This document shows positions 7,047 to 14,595 of a stretch of DNA of 35,017 nucleotides, piece by piece. The notes under the pieces were generated by a model. It saw nothing but the letters and a program-made list of their open reading frames with translations. It was not told the DNA's origin and searched no databases. The translations under genes and the position numbers were made by a program. The DNA is from a virus (taxonomy: Duplodnaviria > Heunggongvirae > Uroviricota > Caudoviricetes), in the IMG/VR virus record IMGVR_UViG_2623620502_000007, one strand, 5' to 3'. Within the stretch, counting starts at the first letter, position 1. Every line of letters starts with the position of its first letter.

Positions 7047-8237
7047 TTAATTGCTGTTAACCGAGGTGACCAGATTTGCCAGGTATTTATCGGTAATACG
7101 CTGGCGCAGGGTCAGGTTTTCGAGAGGAGGCACCGGTGTATAGTCGTAGTCGATATACAGTTTTCCGGCCTTGAGGGTTTCCGCATCGTTGGATTCTTCG
7201 CTGAACCAGCAGGTCGCATCCACGATATAGCCGTTTGTTTTCAGCTCTCGGAATTTGGCATTGATGCCATCAACGATGTCGCGAATCAGCGTTGCGGTGA
7301 TGGGCTTGTCCACCGCCCACATGTGCGCCTCAGCCATCGTGTCGGCCAGCACCTGCGCGGTGCGGGTGTAGTTTTCAAAGAGGAACAGCGGGTCATCAGA
7401 GCAGGTACGGTTACCCCAGAAGCGGAAACCGTCACGGCGAATCAGCGTTGTGACGCCTGACTCATTCAGCAGGTCAGCATCGGTGCCGGACTCCTGCAAA
7501 TCCCAGAATACAGATGCGCTGATGCCGGTAACACCGTTCACCCCAACGTTGGACAGTGTTTTATGCCAGCCCTGCTCCTGGTCGATTTTAGCGCGCAGAC
7601 CCAGCGCACGGGCGGTGGCATACGCGGTGGCGGTGGTACTGGTGACCGTATCCCATGCGAGGAAATCCGGCCAGATGACCATCAGCTCACGCTGGCTGAA
7701 ATTCTGGCGGTAGGCTTTCACCTCGGAAATGGTCTTACAGCCCCATGCGCTGATATATCCGAAAGCGCGCAGCTTCTGACAGACGGATGCCAGTGCAACA
7801 GCCACCTCTTTGGTGTCCAGTCCCGGCACACCGAGAATACGCGGTTTAACACCGGTTACCGACTCTGCCGCCAGCAGGGCTTTCAGTCCGGTGTACTGAC
7901 CGTTTTCGTCGGTGGTGCCGATGATATTGGAAACGGTCTGCGCAAGTTTCGTTTCTTCGTCGTCGCCGGTGCCGTCCTCCACGCGCACAACAACGGTAAC
8001 CGGTTTTGACTGGTCGGCGATGGCCTGCAACGATGCCGCCAGCGTGCCTTTTTTACCGGCCTTTGCAATTGCGCTCTGCACATTGGTAATCAGCACCGGT
8101 TTATTGATGGGGAAGGTTTCCGCATCCGCATCGCTGGCCGTGCAGACCATGCCGACAATGGCTGTGGATACGGTGGAAATGACGCGGGTGCCGTCGTTAA
8201 TCTCCAGCACCTGCACGCCGTGATGATAGTCACTCAT
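7047..8237 (-). CDS. FI: Contractile tail sheath protein gpFI (396 aa)
   Basis: Length identical to P2 FI; N-terminus MSDYHHGVQVLEINDGTRVISTVSTAIVGMV; first gene of the FI-FII-E-T-U-D operon. Confidence 0.9.
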   Translation of the reverse strand: MSDYHHGVQVLEINDGTRVISTVSTAIVGMVCTASDADAETFPINKPVLITNVQSAIAKAGKKGTLAASLQAIADQSKPVTVVVRVEDGTGDDEETKLAQTVSNIIGTTDENGQYTGLKALLAAESVTGVKPRILGVPGLDTKEVAVALASVCQKLRAFGYISAWGCKTISEVKAYRQNFSQRELMVIWPDFLAWDTVTSTTATAYATARALGLRAKIDQEQGWHKTLSNVGVNGVTGISASVFWDLQESGTDADLLNESGVTTLIRRDGFRFWGNRTCSDDPLFLFENYTRTAQVLADTMAEAHMWAVDKPITATLIRDIVDGINAKFRELKTNGYIVDATCWFSEESNDAETLKAGKLYIDYDYTPVPPLENLTLRQRITDKYLANLVTSVNSN

Positions 8238-8330
8238 CCGTTTAACTCCGTGGTTAATGGGTGCAACTATTTTCCGTTGGGTAGTACATGAGACGCTATT
8301 TGACCTGGCTGGTCAGTGGATGAAACAACA

Positions 8331-8360
8331 GATAAAGAAAAGGCGGGCAATCTGCCCGCC
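8331..8360 (-). terminator. Rho-independent terminator on the minus strand, between the cargo gene and FI
   Basis: Hairpin ggcgggca-atc-tgcccgcc (8342-8360) followed on the minus strand by TTTTCTTTATC. Confidence 0.6.
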
Positions 8361-8592
8361 TGTCCTGATTTGTACACACTCATTTTCCGACTGACAATTT
8401 ACATAGCCAAAATGCTATCAAATCTGACAGCCTGTTTTGAGCGAAGAGGAACCTGAGATTGTGGTATGCTAATTTATGGGGAGCAGGTCAATTGTATTAG
8501 TTATCTTTTTGCCTTTCTTTATCCCATTTCTTTACAGTGGTCTGATACCACTCTTCACGTGTTCGTTATTCCTCTGCTCTGTCACTTGAATT

Positions 8593-9189
8593 TTAGTTGT
8601 CTGTTTTAATTTTTTTGCTTCCCTGGGAAATCGGCCTCCAGTCTTCTCTAATATTTTTCATCTGCTCAGCTATCTGTGTCATTGGACTCCTTGCACCTAA
8701 GTAGCTAACCCCCTCGAAAGAAGCCATATCATAAGAATACTCATTCCGCTCTCTTTCAGTTGAGCCCGGCTGTTTAGACCAGCTAATACTAACAGAATAA
8801 ACTTGATCTTTAATCTGGTCATACTTACAAAGACTGCTGTTGAGGGAATGGCCGTTTTTCAATACGCTAACCTTGCTAAATGGTATACCTTTATTTTTTC
8901 TATGTTCTGCATTAACCAGTGGGGGATTAAATCCGACTTCAATATCATAGGCTGGGGCATTTCCGGTATTAGCAATATTGATATCAAAATAAAAAGCAGC
9001 CCAAGAATTTGGTTCAAGAGTCACAACGACATGAGGTTGAACTGATGCGTCAACCATCCTTTTTGTCTCGTCTGCTAATAGCCTTGTTACTCTCCACAAG
9101 AAAAATGTAGCAACTGCTGTTAGCAATGCTGCCAAAGCGGAGATAAGTGTACTTACTGTGTTTATATGCTCTGCGATAAATTCGATCAT
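8593..9189 (-). CDS. Hypothetical membrane-anchored protein (198 aa), cargo in the FI/G slot
   Basis: AT-rich ORF with a Shine-Dalgarno-like AAGGA upstream; predicted single N-terminal transmembrane helix (VSTLISALAALLTAVATFFLW) followed by a roughly 165-aa soluble domain; no family recognised by eye. Confidence 0.6.
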   Translation of the reverse strand: MIEFIAEHINTVSTLISALAALLTAVATFFLWRVTRLLADETKRMVDASVQPHVVVTLEPNSWAAFYFDINIANTGNAPAYDIEVGFNPPLVNAEHRKNKGIPFSKVSVLKNGHSLNSSLCKYDQIKDQVYSVSISWSKQPGSTERERNEYSYDMASFEGVSYLGARSPMTQIAEQMKNIREDWRPISQGSKKIKTDN

Positions 9190-9641
9190 GAGTTGTCCTT
9201 GGGGGCGTACTAATTGTTTTCAATACTAAAATAGCGCCGGGCTTGAAAAATTGCACACTTATGGTTCGATTTACCTCAACAGTTAAGGCTTCAACTTCCC
9301 CCATGCACCTCACCCAGCCCAAGACTGTATGAGGTCTGACAAAGAACTTCCTGACACTTGAAAACGAGGCAACGGCTAGGGTTTCTCGTAGGGCAAGGAT
9401 TGAATACGAAGCCTGTATATTGCTCCGCGAACGCTGCTGAGGGCAGTTTAAATGTTGGGCGTTTATGTAGCCTTTCACTCACCAGCATGAGTTCAATGTC
9501 TGTGAGTTACCGACAACAATATAAAGGGGGTGGCATCATCATATATCCAAGCTAGAGTCAAATCCTCTAACTGGTTTTATGATCAGTGTCAATTGTTTGA
9601 TTATTGAACGTTTACGAAGCAGCACGGGAGCCATATAACTA

Positions 9642-9860
9642 ATGGGCAGGTATAAGCCTGTATCACGAGGAATCAGTAAAATGGCTGATGATAAGACCAA
9701 AATCGGTACCCCTGACAATGATTTAATAAGTATCAAACAGGATTACGAGAGACGTGATTGGGCTGAAAAGTTTGGAGTTAGCGAGACCAAACTTGTTCAA
9801 GCCGTACAGGCTGTAGGTCATTCGGCTAAGAAAGTACAGGCATGGCTTAAAGACCATTAA
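9642..9860 (+). CDS. Small hypothetical protein (72 aa; 59 aa if started at the internal ATG 9681), possibly DUF3606-like
   Basis: ORF in the AT-rich cargo region; the internal ATG at 9681 has the better RBS (GAGG about 10 nt upstream); the motif DYERRDWAEKFGVSETKLVQAVQAVG resembles DUF3606-type small proteins from memory. Confidence 0.5.
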   Translation: MGRYKPVSRGISKMADDKTKIGTPDNDLISIKQDYERRDWAEKFGVSETKLVQAVQAVGHSAKKVQAWLKDH

Positions 9861-9912
9861 TATATGAGCGCCTTTCTAGGCGCTTTTTTCTTTGTCCTTT
9901 GGGGGATGATTT

Positions 9913-10191
9913 ATGGCTAATAATTTATTTATTACTTACGACCTCATTAAAACGAAAGATTATGCGGCTGTGTATGATGCAATTAAATCTTTAGGAAATT
10001 GGGCTTTAACAACTGAATCGAACTGGTATGTTAACTGTAGTTACTCTGCCGAGGATGCAGCCAAAATTGTGAGGGCGATCATGGATAGTGATGATAAGCT
10101 TATTGTTGTAGACGCAACCAATAACTCAGCTTATTGGTACAATCTCTCAGATGAAGTTAGTAACCAAATTCTGACTGAGTGGAACAAGTAA
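9913..10191 (+). CDS. Small hypothetical protein (92 aa), cargo in the FI/G slot
   Basis: Strong RBS (GGGGGA 7-9 nt upstream of ATG), AT-rich codon usage, followed by a hairpin terminator; no family recognised. Confidence 0.6.
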   Translation: MANNLFITYDLIKTKDYAAVYDAIKSLGNWALTTESNWYVNCSYSAEDAAKIVRAIMDSDDKLIVVDATNNSAYWYNLSDEVSNQILTEWNK

Positions 10192-10196
10192 TTAAA

Positions 10197-10220
10197 GGGG
10201 GTGGGTAGCCCCCTTTAATT
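10197..10220 (+). terminator. Weak rho-independent terminator after the 92-aa ORF
   Basis: ggggg-tgggtag-ccccc stem-loop followed by tttaatt. Confidence 0.5.
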
Positions 10221-10411
10221 CAGAAACCATCATGATTGAAACATTAAATATACTGGGTTAATTCTTTCATCCTTGCTCCCTTGCTATATGTCCTGAAAGC
10301 GTCCTTTTTAGCCTTCTGCTCAGTATGTCCGGTAATGGCACAGAGCGGACTGCCAGATTAGGCTTTACTCTGTGCCATAGATATGTAATCTCACACCAGA
10401 GCTTATACAAC

Positions 10412-10939
10412 TTATTGCGGCATTTCCGGCCATTCAGGATTTGCAGGATCCACACGACTGACCAGAACGCTGTAGCGTTCCCAAGCCTCCAGCCGTGTGC
10501 GCTCCTCCTCTGTTGCCATGTTCAGCCTGACAGCGCGCTCCAGCGGCAAAATCACGGATTCAGCATCTGCAAGAAGTCTGGCTTTCCGATTTTCTGCCTG
10601 CTGCTGCAATTCCTCTGCCGTATAAATGCGTTTAATCACTTTGCCGTCCTTAAACATCCAGTTCCCTGAAATGTCCGCCCGTCGGTTAGCAGTAATATCC
10701 GCCACTTCAACCACACTTAATCCATCCGGTCTGATAGCTGTCACATCCTTTTCCACATAGCGGATGATATTATCTTTGTCGTACGCTATTTTTATCGTGT
10801 CATCAGCAAAATACTTTTGTTCTTCGTACCAGTTCTTACCATCTTCTGTAAAAAACCAGACGACATCAAAGTTCTTTGTCAATTGATATTGTTCAACCGT
10901 TTTTGGATTACCTGCCGTTATATTTATCAAATGCTGCAT
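10412..10939 (-). CDS. G: Tail fibre assembly chaperone gpG (175 aa)
   Basis: Length equals P2 G; immediately downstream of H with a 3-nt gap. Confidence 0.85.
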
Positions 10940-10942
10940 AAA

Positions 10943-13153
10943 TTATACCTGCGCCACGTTGTACCATGTCCCGTTAATGTATTTCTGAACCGGTCTGTAA
11001 TATACGCCACCAATGTTATCGGCAGAGTTTGAGCCGGTATCCTGAACAATAATGCCGGTATATACACACCCGGACGGTGCCTGATGTGTCCATGTCATGC
11101 CATTGTTCGCAGGTTTGTATGTGGCGGCACCACCAAGTCGGATATCCCGGACATAGCGGGAGTCAAAATTGCTGAAATTTGATGGTATCACCTGCCCGGT
11201 AACCCGTAGTGCATCAGGCTTAAGCGTCATCAGATCTTTTGTTGTGCTGCCAGACCTGATGCGCCATTTAAAATATTCATTGCCATTATCACCAGTTTCA
11301 AACCACATGTATGAGTCAGAATCAGCATCTGAATCATTTTTAAATCCAATTTTCGCCCAGTCAGTGTTTCTTTCCCAAATCAGGAAGGCATCATTGATAA
11401 ATTTTATGCTGCCTGACATGCTTCCGCCTGATAATGCCAGAGCAAGAATATCCGCAGGTGTTGGCTTTCGTGATGTGGTATAAAACTCTGACCAGTCAGC
11501 CTCAAATCCATACCCATCACGTGCCGACCTGTAAAAAATCCCCCTGTTTTTATAATCCACAAGAAACTGCATTGCCGGACAACTTCCCTCACCCGTGTAA
11601 AAATGCAACACCATTTTTGATGCTCCGCCATCCTGTGCACAATAAGCACCACTGTCCCAGTTCCATCCTACCGCTTTATTATTTGCAACCGTATTTCCTG
11701 TTTTCCCTAATGCAAAAGCCGGTTGCTTATTTTTCGTATTGTAGTCGCGTCGCCAGCCCGGCGCATAATCAGCTCCGTGATTGATATACGTGAATTGCGC
11801 ACTGGTGGTACCACCACCGCTTGATGTACTCGGAGTGGTCACACGAATGGTCATTGCTGCTTTAACGCCCATAACCTCAATCACGCAACCTGCAAGATGA
11901 ATAGTCCCACAGTCAGTATCGGTAATAATTTTGTTATTACCATATGACCAGGAACACTTGCACATCCAGTAAGGATGATTAAAGGCTCCCTGAGACTCTA
12001 GCCAGTCAATAAACTGAGCGGTTGTCCAGTTTCCGGCTTCAGTGCTCAAAGCGCCGCTATAAGCACGACAGGCACCGATATTTTTCGTGAAGGTATCCTT
12101 TCCCGGAATATCCGCACCGTTCTGATCTTTCTGAAGACGTTTTTCAGCATTGTCATAGGCAGACCTCACCGCTTTTGGTGTTGCGGCCAGCGTTTCTGAA
12201 TCGCTGTTGGTGGCGCTACTGAGCTGGACAAGCCCTTTTCGCGCCGTGGTGGCATCCTGTGCGGTATATTTCCCGTTAGCGAGGTCATATGCTGCCTTTA
12301 CCGCCTTTGGCGTTGCCGCAAGCGTTTCAGAATCGCTGTTGGTGGCGCTACTGAGCTGAGCAAGCCCTTTTCGCGCTGTGGTGGCGTCCTGTGCAGTGTA
12401 TTTCCCGTTAGCAAGGTCATATGCTGTCTTTACTGCTTTTGGCGTTGCGGCGAGCGTTTCAGACGTGCTGTTAGTCGCACTACTGAGCTGAACAAGGCCT
12501 TTTCGCGCCGTGGTGGCATCCTGCGCAGTATATTTCCCGTTAGCAAGGTCATATGCGGCCTTTACCGCTTTCGGCGTTGCGGCCAGTGTTTCAGACGTGC
12601 TGTTGGTCGCACTGCTTAACTGAGTAAAACCTTTTGCGGTCAGCGAGGCGTCCGGGTGACGTCGTGACTGTTCGTGCTCTGCAATTTTGTCATCAACGTA
12701 ATCCTGCGTCGCCATCACCGTTGTGGTGTCAATGGTCAGCGCCACTGAGGCCACACTGCTGACGATGATGACCATGCGACAGGTCTGCGAACGCCCTGAG
12801 CCTTCGGCAAGAGCTGGCTTATAACTTTCGGCCATGTTCGCCACGGCAATTAATGTTCCCGCATCATCGTACAGGCCAAGCTCACGCATCCAGAAACCGC
12901 CCACCTCCGGCGGAATAACCAGCTCTGCGATAATATAATTACTGTTTCGTTTGTCCTGACTGATTTTGTTCAGCGCATGTCGCCAGACTTCGTGGATAAG
13001 CCCGGTCTGTCCGGCATCCGGGACAGGCAATTTACCACCGCCATCCCCGACGGCCATCGTGGTAATGTTGACCTTCCGCCCTCCCGGTGCGGTTGCCGCT
13101 GCCAGCTTTGCTGCACCGGCAGTGGTGATAACGGTTTTGAATTTTGTGCTCAT
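10943..13153 (-). CDS. H: Tail fibre protein gpH (736 aa) with internal tandem repeats and a divergent C-terminal receptor-binding region
   Basis: N-terminus MSTKFKTVITTAGAAKLAAA is typical of P2-family H; about 3.7 tandem copies of a 44-aa unit; C-terminal half is lower-GC and Cys-containing, unlike the N-terminal part. Confidence 0.88.
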   Translation of the reverse strand: MSTKFKTVITTAGAAKLAAATAPGGRKVNITTMAVGDGGGKLPVPDAGQTGLIHEVWRHALNKISQDKRNSNYIIAELVIPPEVGGFWMRELGLYDDAGTLIAVANMAESYKPALAEGSGRSQTCRMVIIVSSVASVALTIDTTTVMATQDYVDDKIAEHEQSRRHPDASLTAKGFTQLSSATNSTSETLAATPKAVKAAYDLANGKYTAQDATTARKGLVQLSSATNSTSETLAATPKAVKTAYDLANGKYTAQDATTARKGLAQLSSATNSDSETLAATPKAVKAAYDLANGKYTAQDATTARKGLVQLSSATNSDSETLAATPKAVRSAYDNAEKRLQKDQNGADIPGKDTFTKNIGACRAYSGALSTEAGNWTTAQFIDWLESQGAFNHPYWMCKCSWSYGNNKIITDTDCGTIHLAGCVIEVMGVKAAMTIRVTTPSTSSGGGTTSAQFTYINHGADYAPGWRRDYNTKNKQPAFALGKTGNTVANNKAVGWNWDSGAYCAQDGGASKMVLHFYTGEGSCPAMQFLVDYKNRGIFYRSARDGYGFEADWSEFYTTSRKPTPADILALALSGGSMSGSIKFINDAFLIWERNTDWAKIGFKNDSDADSDSYMWFETGDNGNEYFKWRIRSGSTTKDLMTLKPDALRVTGQVIPSNFSNFDSRYVRDIRLGGAATYKPANNGMTWTHQAPSGCVYTGIIVQDTGSNSADNIGGVYYRPVQKYINGTWYNVAQV
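12140..12634 (-). repeat. Intragenic tandem repeat in H: about 3.7 copies of a 132-nt (44-aa) unit
   Basis: Protein repeat KG[FL]xQLSSATNS[TD]SETLAATPKAVKxAYDLANGKYTAQDATTAR at aa 174-217, 218-261, 262-305 and a partial fourth copy; near-identical at nucleotide level. Confidence 0.85.
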
Positions 13154-13163
13154 TATTCCTCAC

Positions 13164-13694
13164 TTATCCGGGGTAAACCGTAATTACATCGCCGTCGTAA
13201 GCCACACCACCGGCGAACAGGTAGCCGGGAATGTCCCGGGTAATGTTCAGGCCAATAAGGTGGCGGCTTGCAGGTTTGGCATCAGCAATCAGCCGTTCCA
13301 TTTCCTGATACATTGCCTCTGTGATGCCACTTTCCAGTACACCAATATCAAGCCGGAAGGTGCCGGGCGGGTCACTGTTTTCCCACCACTCCGTCACGTT
13401 GATGAGATAGCCGAGCGGCTCCACCACACGCCGGATTGCACCTATAGTGCCTTTATGACAGTGGATGAAATACGCATCGCGGATAACGGCGCGTTTTGTC
13501 GCTTCCGGCCACTTTTCATCCCACCTGTCGACCGAAAACGCCCACGCCAGCCACGGCAGCAGATTTGCCGGACAGGTGTCCGGGTTCCACAGCTCACGAA
13601 TACTGACCGGCGTTTTTTCAATTTCCGCACAGGCTTTTGCGGCGGCGACCTCAAGCGGTGATGAGCCGGTCGGCAGCAGTCGCGAATCACTCAT
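13164..13694 (-). CDS. I: Baseplate protein gpI (176 aa)
   Basis: Synteny and length match P2 I; overlaps the J stop. Confidence 0.85.
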   Translation of the reverse strand: MSDSRLLPTGSSPLEVAAAKACAEIEKTPVSIRELWNPDTCPANLLPWLAWAFSVDRWDEKWPEATKRAVIRDAYFIHCHKGTIGAIRRVVEPLGYLINVTEWWENSDPPGTFRLDIGVLESGITEAMYQEMERLIADAKPASRHLIGLNITRDIPGYLFAGGVAYDGDVITVYPG

Positions 13695-14595
13695 CCGAGC
13701 CTCCGGTCACGACGCGGTATTCGGTACAGAAAGACGCCTGCGTACTGTTGAGCACGATGTCGGCCAGTGGTGCAGCCAGTTCGACACGCTGCACACCTTC
13801 CACATGCAAAGCGGCATAAATGGCAGACAGACGGATGTCGCGCCCCAGCCGGTGCTGTGCCGTGATATACGCTTCCAGTTTTTTCACGGCGGCAGCGCGA
13901 ATGGGTTCGCTTTCGGGACCAGGGTAAAGGTAAAGCGTGGCGTTTATCTGGTATTCAACGATGGCGGCAGACTGCACGGTCACGCGGTCGGCCACCGGCC
14001 TGACGTCCTCGCCATTAAGGGCGTTACGCACCACCGCCAGCAGGTCTTCGGATGCGACACCGTTATTTTCACGTGACAGCACAGAGATGGTGACGCAGGC
14101 CGGAGACGGACTGGTTACAGAAATATCCGCGACACGCCCGTCGGCACTGCGACCATGATACTGATAAGCACCCACCGACCCGGCGACGCTTAAGCCCTCA
14201 AACGCCTGCTGAATACGCAGACGATAATCGGTGTCAGATTCCATCACTGCCGGTGTCGGCGGAATGGTCGAATCATCTGCCGGGGTGATAGTCAGGCGCG
14301 TGGTGTTGTAATTGGCACCAATCACATCAAGGTCATTACCGGCTGCACAGGCCAACATCACCGCCCGTGCGGCCTCATTCACACGCTGACGCCAGATAAG
14401 CTCACGATAAGCGTTTTCCTCCAGCAGTTTGACGAGAGGCTCGGATTCCAGCGTCAGGGTACGGGCGACCGCCTCCTGCTGGTCTTCCGGGTAAAGGGAA
14501 ATCAGTGTCGCCTTGCGTTCGGCAAGAATGGTTTCAAAGTCCAGCTCCTCGACCACATCCGGTGCAGGTAGCTGGTTCAGGTCGATAATCGGCAT
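13687..14595 (-). CDS. J: Baseplate wedge protein gpJ (302 aa)
   Basis: Synteny and length match P2 J. Confidence 0.87.
   Translation of the reverse strand: MPIIDLNQLPAPDVVEELDFETILAERKATLISLYPEDQQEAVARTLTLESEPLVKLLEENAYRELIWRQRVNEAARAVMLACAAGNDLDVIGANYNTTRLTITPADDSTIPPTPAVMESDTDYRLRIQQAFEGLSVAGSVGAYQYHGRSADGRVADISVTSPSPACVTISVLSRENNGVASEDLLAVVRNALNGEDVRPVADRVTVQSAAIVEYQINATLYLYPGPESEPIRAAAVKKLEAYITAQHRLGRDIRLSAIYAALHVEGVQRVELAAPLADIVLNSTQASFCTEYRVVTGGSDE

Follow-up and report, generated by a model that had tools for sequence, protein, structure and literature searches.

A tandem PF03406 repeat array in the tail-fibre gene H of a P2-like Escherichia coli prophage and its variation by whole units

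The tail-fibre gene H described here is carried on a 35,017-nucleotide (nt) stretch of viral DNA (IMG/VR record IMGVR_UViG_2623620502_000007), in a region that is part of a P2-like (Peduovirus) Escherichia coli prophage. The whole stretch is referred to below as the window, and all coordinates are counted from its first letter as position 1. Between a conserved P2-type N-terminal domain and an exchangeable distal part, the H protein carries an array of three full units and one truncated unit of the Pfam repeat family PF03406. When H genes are aligned, their copy number differs by whole units, in frame, and at least one of these differences is an exact in-frame loss. Trimeric phage fibres in general provide the basis for viewing such units as successive segments of the proximal shaft. 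In H, the units would stack along a trimeric proximal shaft, and each gain or loss would change the length of the fibre by a fixed step. The misalignment of units behind changes of this kind may occur either through unequal, RecA-dependent homologous recombination or through replication slippage. The conserved repeat and its linker could also supply the homology by which a P2-type base acquires distal cassettes from Mu- and P1-type phages, with the distal modules and the chaperone presumably setting host range.

The repeat array and gene H

In protein terms, the array occupies 12134-12640 and comprises about 3.8 units of 44 amino acids (aa). Tandem Repeats Finder reports a slightly narrower interval (12168-12613; period 132, 3.4 copies, 88% matches, 0 indels, score 675), and a repeat finder places 226-nt copies starting at 12146, 12278 and 12410, a spacing of exactly 132 nt. 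The original prediction, made from the sequence alone, of about 3.7 tandem 44-aa copies at 12140-12634 was accurate. Its description of the units as near-identical holds at the protein level, where the full units are 89-93% identical, but not at the DNA level, where they are only 82-86% identical.

The Pfam family PF03406 (Phage_fiber_2, "phage tail fibre repeat") matches four stretches of H with an E value of 1.8e-78, and chance is therefore excluded as an explanation for the array. The whole-protein score is 258.3 bits against a gathering cut-off of 22, and the best stretch (aa 170-210) covers model positions 1-41 of 42. The period is exactly 44 aa (132 nt), for a family of repeats of about 40 residues, and the array lies inside a tail-fibre protein with N- and C-terminal fibre domains. 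By profile match, the array is an ordinary multi-copy case of this already catalogued family, and nothing material sets it apart.

The tail of the fourth unit (aa 334-347, extending to window position 12113) aligns in two ways, once with the segment after the single repeat of the Mu fibre proteins S and S', and once with the beginning of the S'-like module; the two Mu alignments overlap at query positions 334-363. A related observation concerns the motif NGADIP.K..F..N.G, which occurs twice in Mu S' (Protein Data Bank (PDB) entry 8ju3), near residue 160, where the S/S' segment after the single repeat ends, and near residue 190, at the start of the S'-like region. H has this motif once, at aa 334-363 (approximately 12065-12152), precisely where the last repeat unit meets the S'-like module. 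This arrangement suggests that the motif marks the place where the two parts were joined.

Gene H itself belongs to the P2 H family, as judged by N-terminal homology and by its operon position next to a Caudo_TAP chaperone. Pfam PF12571, a tail-collar fibre N-terminal domain, matches its first 150 aa (E 2.3e-58), and the N-terminus is 96.5% identical to aa 1-171 of P2 H. The gene is 100% identical to one that carries the annotation "tail fiber protein" in E. coli VG12A2 (NZ_CP128592.1). According to Pfam and the RefSeq annotation of that locus, the surrounding gene order, V-W-J-I-H-G, is that of the usual P2 late genes; the Pfam matches are Tail_P2_I and Baseplate_J upstream of H and Caudo_TAP downstream. 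H is predicted to be trimeric on the virion and to function in adsorption. The order along the locus is N-terminal attachment domain, repeat array, swapped distal modules and then the chaperone gene (Table 1).

Copy number among homologues

The N-terminal domain served as bait for gathering H genes from a phage collection, from IMG/VR and from GTDB genomes, and units were counted with a hidden Markov model (HMM) built from the window's own units. Half of the 100 complete H genes have four units; two units are present in 23, five in 12, three in 8 and a single unit in 7, and six units occur in some protein database entries. Across the homologues, the period is always 44 aa. Repeat number is thus not invariant, and the proposal that the array is a substrate for copy-number change is borne out by this range of one to five units and by one mapped change from four units to three, described below.

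When genes were grouped into distal types by the sequence following the repeats, most types proved to have a single unit number (for example, four units in 10 of 10 genes, or two in 7 of 7). Three distal types contain alleles that are one unit apart. One is the window's own type, in which eight alleles have four units and one, from phage fiAA91-ss, has three. Roughly 2300 complete E. coli genomes have a match; among those listed, 30 matches are full-length, of which 25 are 2211 nt long and the other five are 2079 nt, exactly one unit shorter. The mostly fixed number within a distal type, together with DNA divergence of 14-18% among the units, points to slow evolutionary instability rather than to a rapid switch. 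Nor is unit number offset by distal length so as to keep the total constant: the Spearman correlation between the two is -0.12 (p 0.47) across all combinations and -0.30 (p 0.23) across the E. coli types.

Units differ in their behaviour according to position. Compared with the units at the same position in other alleles, first units are 94-97% identical, and first and last units together 92-97%; both are positionally conserved. Internal units, by contrast, are pieced together from polymorphism blocks that different alleles have in common, as seen in a table of variable sites. In one allele, L018, units 2 and 3 are 100% identical, and these would represent a recent duplication or conversion.

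Several observations were made on the database records themselves. Of the closest database homologues of H, many carry the label "partial", at approximately 400-630 aa. The number of places per genome that share the conserved 5' part of H has a median of 2 and reaches 10; because of these multiple places, short-read assemblies likely break inside H, which would account for the partial entries and would make unit counts taken from draft assemblies unreliable. The three-unit H of E. coli S19-141 (NZ_CP075640.1, 16860-18938) has an internal stop and is annotated as a pseudogene; some prophage copies of H are thus not intact. Enterobacterial-type P2 H genes, with N-terminal domains 74-78% identical, are also recorded under Vagococcus sp. 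WN89Y and Chryseobacterium sp. 18061. The first label denotes a Gram-positive coccus and the second a member of the Bacteroidota, and assembly contamination or mislabelling seems a likelier explanation than a real host jump.

A mapped one-unit deletion

Four three-unit and four four-unit H alleles from complete genomes were compared directly. The three-unit alleles do not cluster on their non-repeat sequence, and because they are not grouped together, the comparison suggests that they arose more than once. The clearest case is the pair formed by E. coli D6, with four units, and E. coli RX24, with three. There are 0 differences between them in 1701 nt of non-repeat sequence. Their arrays are identical over the leftmost 305 nt and the rightmost 99 nt, and these stretches overlap by 29 nt, so that a single 132-nt deletion accounts for the RX24 array with 0 mismatches. 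The junction falls within 29 nt that units 3 and 4 share without a mismatch. The missing segment includes sequence that RX24 has nowhere else, and the direction of change is therefore loss and not gain.

The equivalent of this junction block in the window is a 29-nt pair in units 3 and 4, which is also the best substrate in the window for a one-unit deletion. A second perfect pair, of 26 nt, links units 1 and 2 (coordinates derived from unit positions 85-110). Collectively, these comparisons point to occasional unequal exchange or slippage, accompanied by conversion among internal units. The units are not uniform, and the rate of such exchange or slippage must thus be low. The base-resolved natural deletion at the 29-nt block is the only mildly new item in what is otherwise an already known feature: the repeat is a catalogued Pfam family, and near-identical alleles are annotated in GenBank phages and E. 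coli records.

Selection on the units

Pairwise comparison of the three full units gives synonymous divergences (dS) of 0.58-0.75 and ratios of nonsynonymous to synonymous divergence (dN/dS) of 0.08-0.14; for pairs that include the truncated unit 4, dS ranges from 0.50 to 1.31. Between separate phages, the N-terminal domain has a dS of only 0.04-0.075. Since the differences between units are mainly synonymous and their dS is far above that of the N-terminal domain, the units are best described as old paralogues held constant as protein. By this measure, they are kept by selection on the protein and not on the DNA.

Alternative explanations

Several points weigh against the reading of the array as a shaft segment that gains and loses units in place. 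Perfect identity between the window's units extends to at most 29 nt, and unit number is uniform in most distal types, so events must be infrequent. A junction was mapped for one event alone; the other three-unit alleles have no close parent in the sample, and some copy-number differences could reflect import of whole arrays by recombination between phages rather than misalignment in place. The hits of a profile search of the PDB with the repeat were confined to Mu S and S', each with one unit, apart from a sub-threshold match to TrwJ (E 0.38). Among these matches, no solved structure is shown to resolve the repeat unit, so that a dependence of shaft length on unit number is a prediction. A single-sequence AlphaFold2 model of the monomer, aa 148-361, is unusable, with a predicted local distance difference test (pLDDT) score of 43 and a predicted template modelling (pTM) score of 0.25. 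Finally, the correlation between tip and chaperone discussed below ignores shared ancestry.

It may be that unit number is an adaptive length tuner, in which units are repeatedly gained and lost via the remaining 26-29-nt blocks, and in which the synonymous divergence has itself been selected against collapse of the array. We regard this extension as unlikely. If it were true, each unit number would be suited to host surface layers, such as O-antigen or capsule, of a particular thickness.

A less probable model is that copy-number differences arise only by import of whole arrays from other phages and never by misalignment in place. Tail-fibre genes recombine heavily, and the internal units carry polymorphism blocks common to several alleles. 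Moreover, most three-unit alleles are not one deletion away from any sampled four-unit allele, with 11-25 mismatches left over. However, D6 and RX24 are identical except for an exact one-unit deletion in a 29-nt block, which is the signature of misalignment within an array, and import as the sole route is improbable.

More improbable still is a contingency locus, in which the array would act as a programmed length switch of high frequency and produce fibre-length variants within one lysogen population. Alleles that are very closely related do differ in copy number, each change keeps the reading frame since the 132-nt unit corresponds to 44 codons, and some arrays, such as that of L018, have identical adjacent units. 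Frequent misalignment, however, would homogenise the units, and those of the window, at 82-86% DNA identity and a dS of 0.58-0.75, do not have the make-up of a contingency locus. Their longest identity blocks are just 26-29 nt, and unit number is fixed in most distal types, with four units in 25 of the 30 full-length E. coli matches listed.

A role for the repeat as DNA or RNA rather than protein (a regulatory element, recombination site or structured RNA), raised since the period is exact and the array borders an exchanged region, is barely credible: nothing was found in its favour, the differences between units are mostly synonymous (dN/dS approximately 0.1), Rfam has no match across 8000-14000, H is the sole open reading frame (ORF) of 60 aa or more across the array, and the window has no match with three or fewer mismatches to the Mu gix sequence. 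The preferred reading, which is very probable, is that of a PF03406 shaft array, under selection as protein, whose unit number occasionally changes by misalignment.

Distal modules and chaperone

The composition of H changes beyond the repeats. Guanine plus cytosine (GC) content is 0.558 in the N-terminal domain, 0.542 in the repeats and 0.463 in the distal part (aa 348-736), and these three parts contain 1, 0 and 8 cysteines, respectively. The original prediction of a lower-GC, Cys-containing C-terminal half is confirmed by these values. That half had also been proposed to be a horizontally exchanged receptor-binding domain, and here the exchange is upheld, but not the single domain: several modules appear to have been exchanged independently.

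The affinities of these modules were obtained by sequence search of the PDB, with identities computed separately. The first resembles Mu S' (8ju3): residues 177-416 of that protein match aa 334-571 of H at 399 bits and 73.5% identity. The second resembles Mu S (5yvq), with residues 184-267 matching aa 573-656 at 111 bits and 70% identity; this module is absent from some H types that are otherwise alike up to aa 569. At the tip, aa 652-735 are 52% identical to the Mu S tip and also match the tip of the "short tail fiber" in 9cuy. Only part of the distal region aligns with P2 H, at 33% identity, in contrast to the 70-74% identity with Mu S' and S, and the two H proteins are thus not co-linear over this region.

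Megablast similarity to other Peduoviruses stops at nested points, near aa 350, 459 and 560. Protein comparisons with two further H types indicate that the modules move independently. One (L011) has aa 1-569 in common with H and then passes directly into a different tip; the other (L015) has aa 1-359 and 664-736 in common with H, with an unrelated middle. On these comparisons, the distal half consists of three or more modules that were swapped independently, one resembling Mu S', one resembling Mu S, and the tip.

The chaperone G is a full-length match to Mu U (5yvq_B; E 2.3e-82), with 72% identity to Mu U and 74% identity to P2 G. Across 88 loci, identity over the last 80 aa of H correlates with chaperone identity (rho 0.87, uncorrected for shared ancestry), and tip and chaperone thus behave as one cassette. 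In P2-like phages, experimental swaps in the extreme C-terminal fibre residues change host range (PMC5285337).

Table 1. Position and basis of features in and beside gene H.
Feature	Coordinates	Strand	Basis or remark
Tail-fibre gene H, P2-like (Peduovirus)	10943..13153	minus	ORF and translation, 736 aa
N-terminal baseplate-attachment domain, aa 1-171	12641..13153	minus	Pfam PF12571; conserved with P2 H
Repeat unit 1, aa 172-215	12509..12640	minus	Translation and HMM unit count
Repeat unit 2, aa 216-259	12377..12508	minus	Translation and HMM unit count
Repeat unit 3, aa 260-303	12245..12376	minus	Translation and HMM unit count
Truncated repeat unit 4, aa 304-340	12134..12244	minus	HMM positions 1-33 of 44
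26-nt perfect block, unit 1	12531..12556	minus	Twin in unit 2 at 12399-12424
29-nt perfect block, unit 3	12330..12358	minus	Exact pair with unit 4 block
29-nt perfect block, unit 4 (twin)	12198..12226	minus	Exact pair with unit 3 block
Mu S'-like distal module, aa 348-571	11441..12112	minus	GC 0.467, 7 Cys, contains Pfam gp37_C match
Mu S-like module, aa 572-656	11186..11440	minus	GC 0.424, Gp34_trimer-type
C-terminal tip, aa 657-736	10946..11185	minus	Matches Mu S tip and 9cuy "short tail fiber" tip
Tail-fibre assembly chaperone G, 175 aa	10412..10939	minus	Pfam Caudo_TAP, E 1.6e-34
92-aa protein	9913-10191	plus	phrog_1090, no Pfam hit
DUF3606 protein	9642-9860	plus	Pfam
Hypothetical protein, 198 aa	8593-9189	minus	phrog_11802, no Pfam hit

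Comparison with known systems

The H and G genes of P2 occupy the same place in the V-W-J-I-H-G order, and P2 H likewise has PF03406 units directly after the N-terminal domain and a 175-aa Caudo_TAP chaperone encoded downstream. P2 H has two units (one full and one truncated), whereas the window's H has four, and the distal parts of the two are largely unrelated, with that of the window lower in GC. The lengths of 669 aa stated for P2 H (NP_046775) and 736 aa given for the window's H in the original prediction are both correct. Closer relatives belong to the same allele family. The H gene of Peduovirus P2 OU784750 / NC_070905 is 97.6% identical as DNA over the full 2211 nt. That of fiAA91-ss (YP_008766936, 692 aa) is 96.7% identical as DNA and has the same distal modules and chaperone, but is 2079 nt long, with three units, one fewer than in the window.

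The Mu proteins S (gp49; 5yvq, 9ki1) and S' (8ju3) have one PF03406 unit each, at residues 115-158. Mu inverts its G segment so that S and S' are alternatives, whereas the window's H fuses S'-like and S-like parts in series within a fixed gene, behind an N-terminal domain that is P2-type and not Mu-type. No invertase domain was found in the neighbouring ORFs scanned against Pfam: those at 8593-9189, 9050-9478 and 9913-10191 have no hit, and that at 9642-9860 encodes the DUF3606 protein. A search for a gix relic gave no match with three or fewer mismatches at the junction between repeat and distal part or in the window, and the local DNA is unlike it. The locus has only one chaperone gene. As neither an invertase nor crossover sites were found, the H locus shares modules with the invertible fibre system of Mu and P1 but is not a member of it.

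In 1992, Haggard-Ljungquist and colleagues reportedly described how phages including P2, Mu and P1 exchange segments of their tail-fibre genes horizontally. Mosaicism among these phages has since been textbook knowledge, and the repeat, its varying copy number and the mosaic distal end of H are ordinary features for phage tail fibres. PF03406 itself has been annotated in fibre proteins of E. coli O157 prophages as single units between collagen regions (PMC3368898), and a study of the Mu structure in situ built only the N-terminus of gp49 (PMC11915804).

The region beside the chaperone gene

An island of low GC content (0.38-0.43) lies at 8300-10400, between chaperone gene G and the tail-sheath gene FI. 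The same position holds fun(Z) in P2 and a different ORF in fiAA91-ss, and the island looks like a variable cargo slot. A PADLOC search of the cargo ORFs downstream of G returned nothing.

Implications

There is little new biology in the array, and its main interest is that D6 and RX24 provide a clean, base-resolved example of a natural one-unit loss. The map of modules in this H allele could guide the engineering of P2-type fibres and tailocins, both in the choice of cut sites and in keeping the tip with its chaperone. It also carries a warning: part of the variation in H length among prophages stems from unit number rather than from a difference in receptors.

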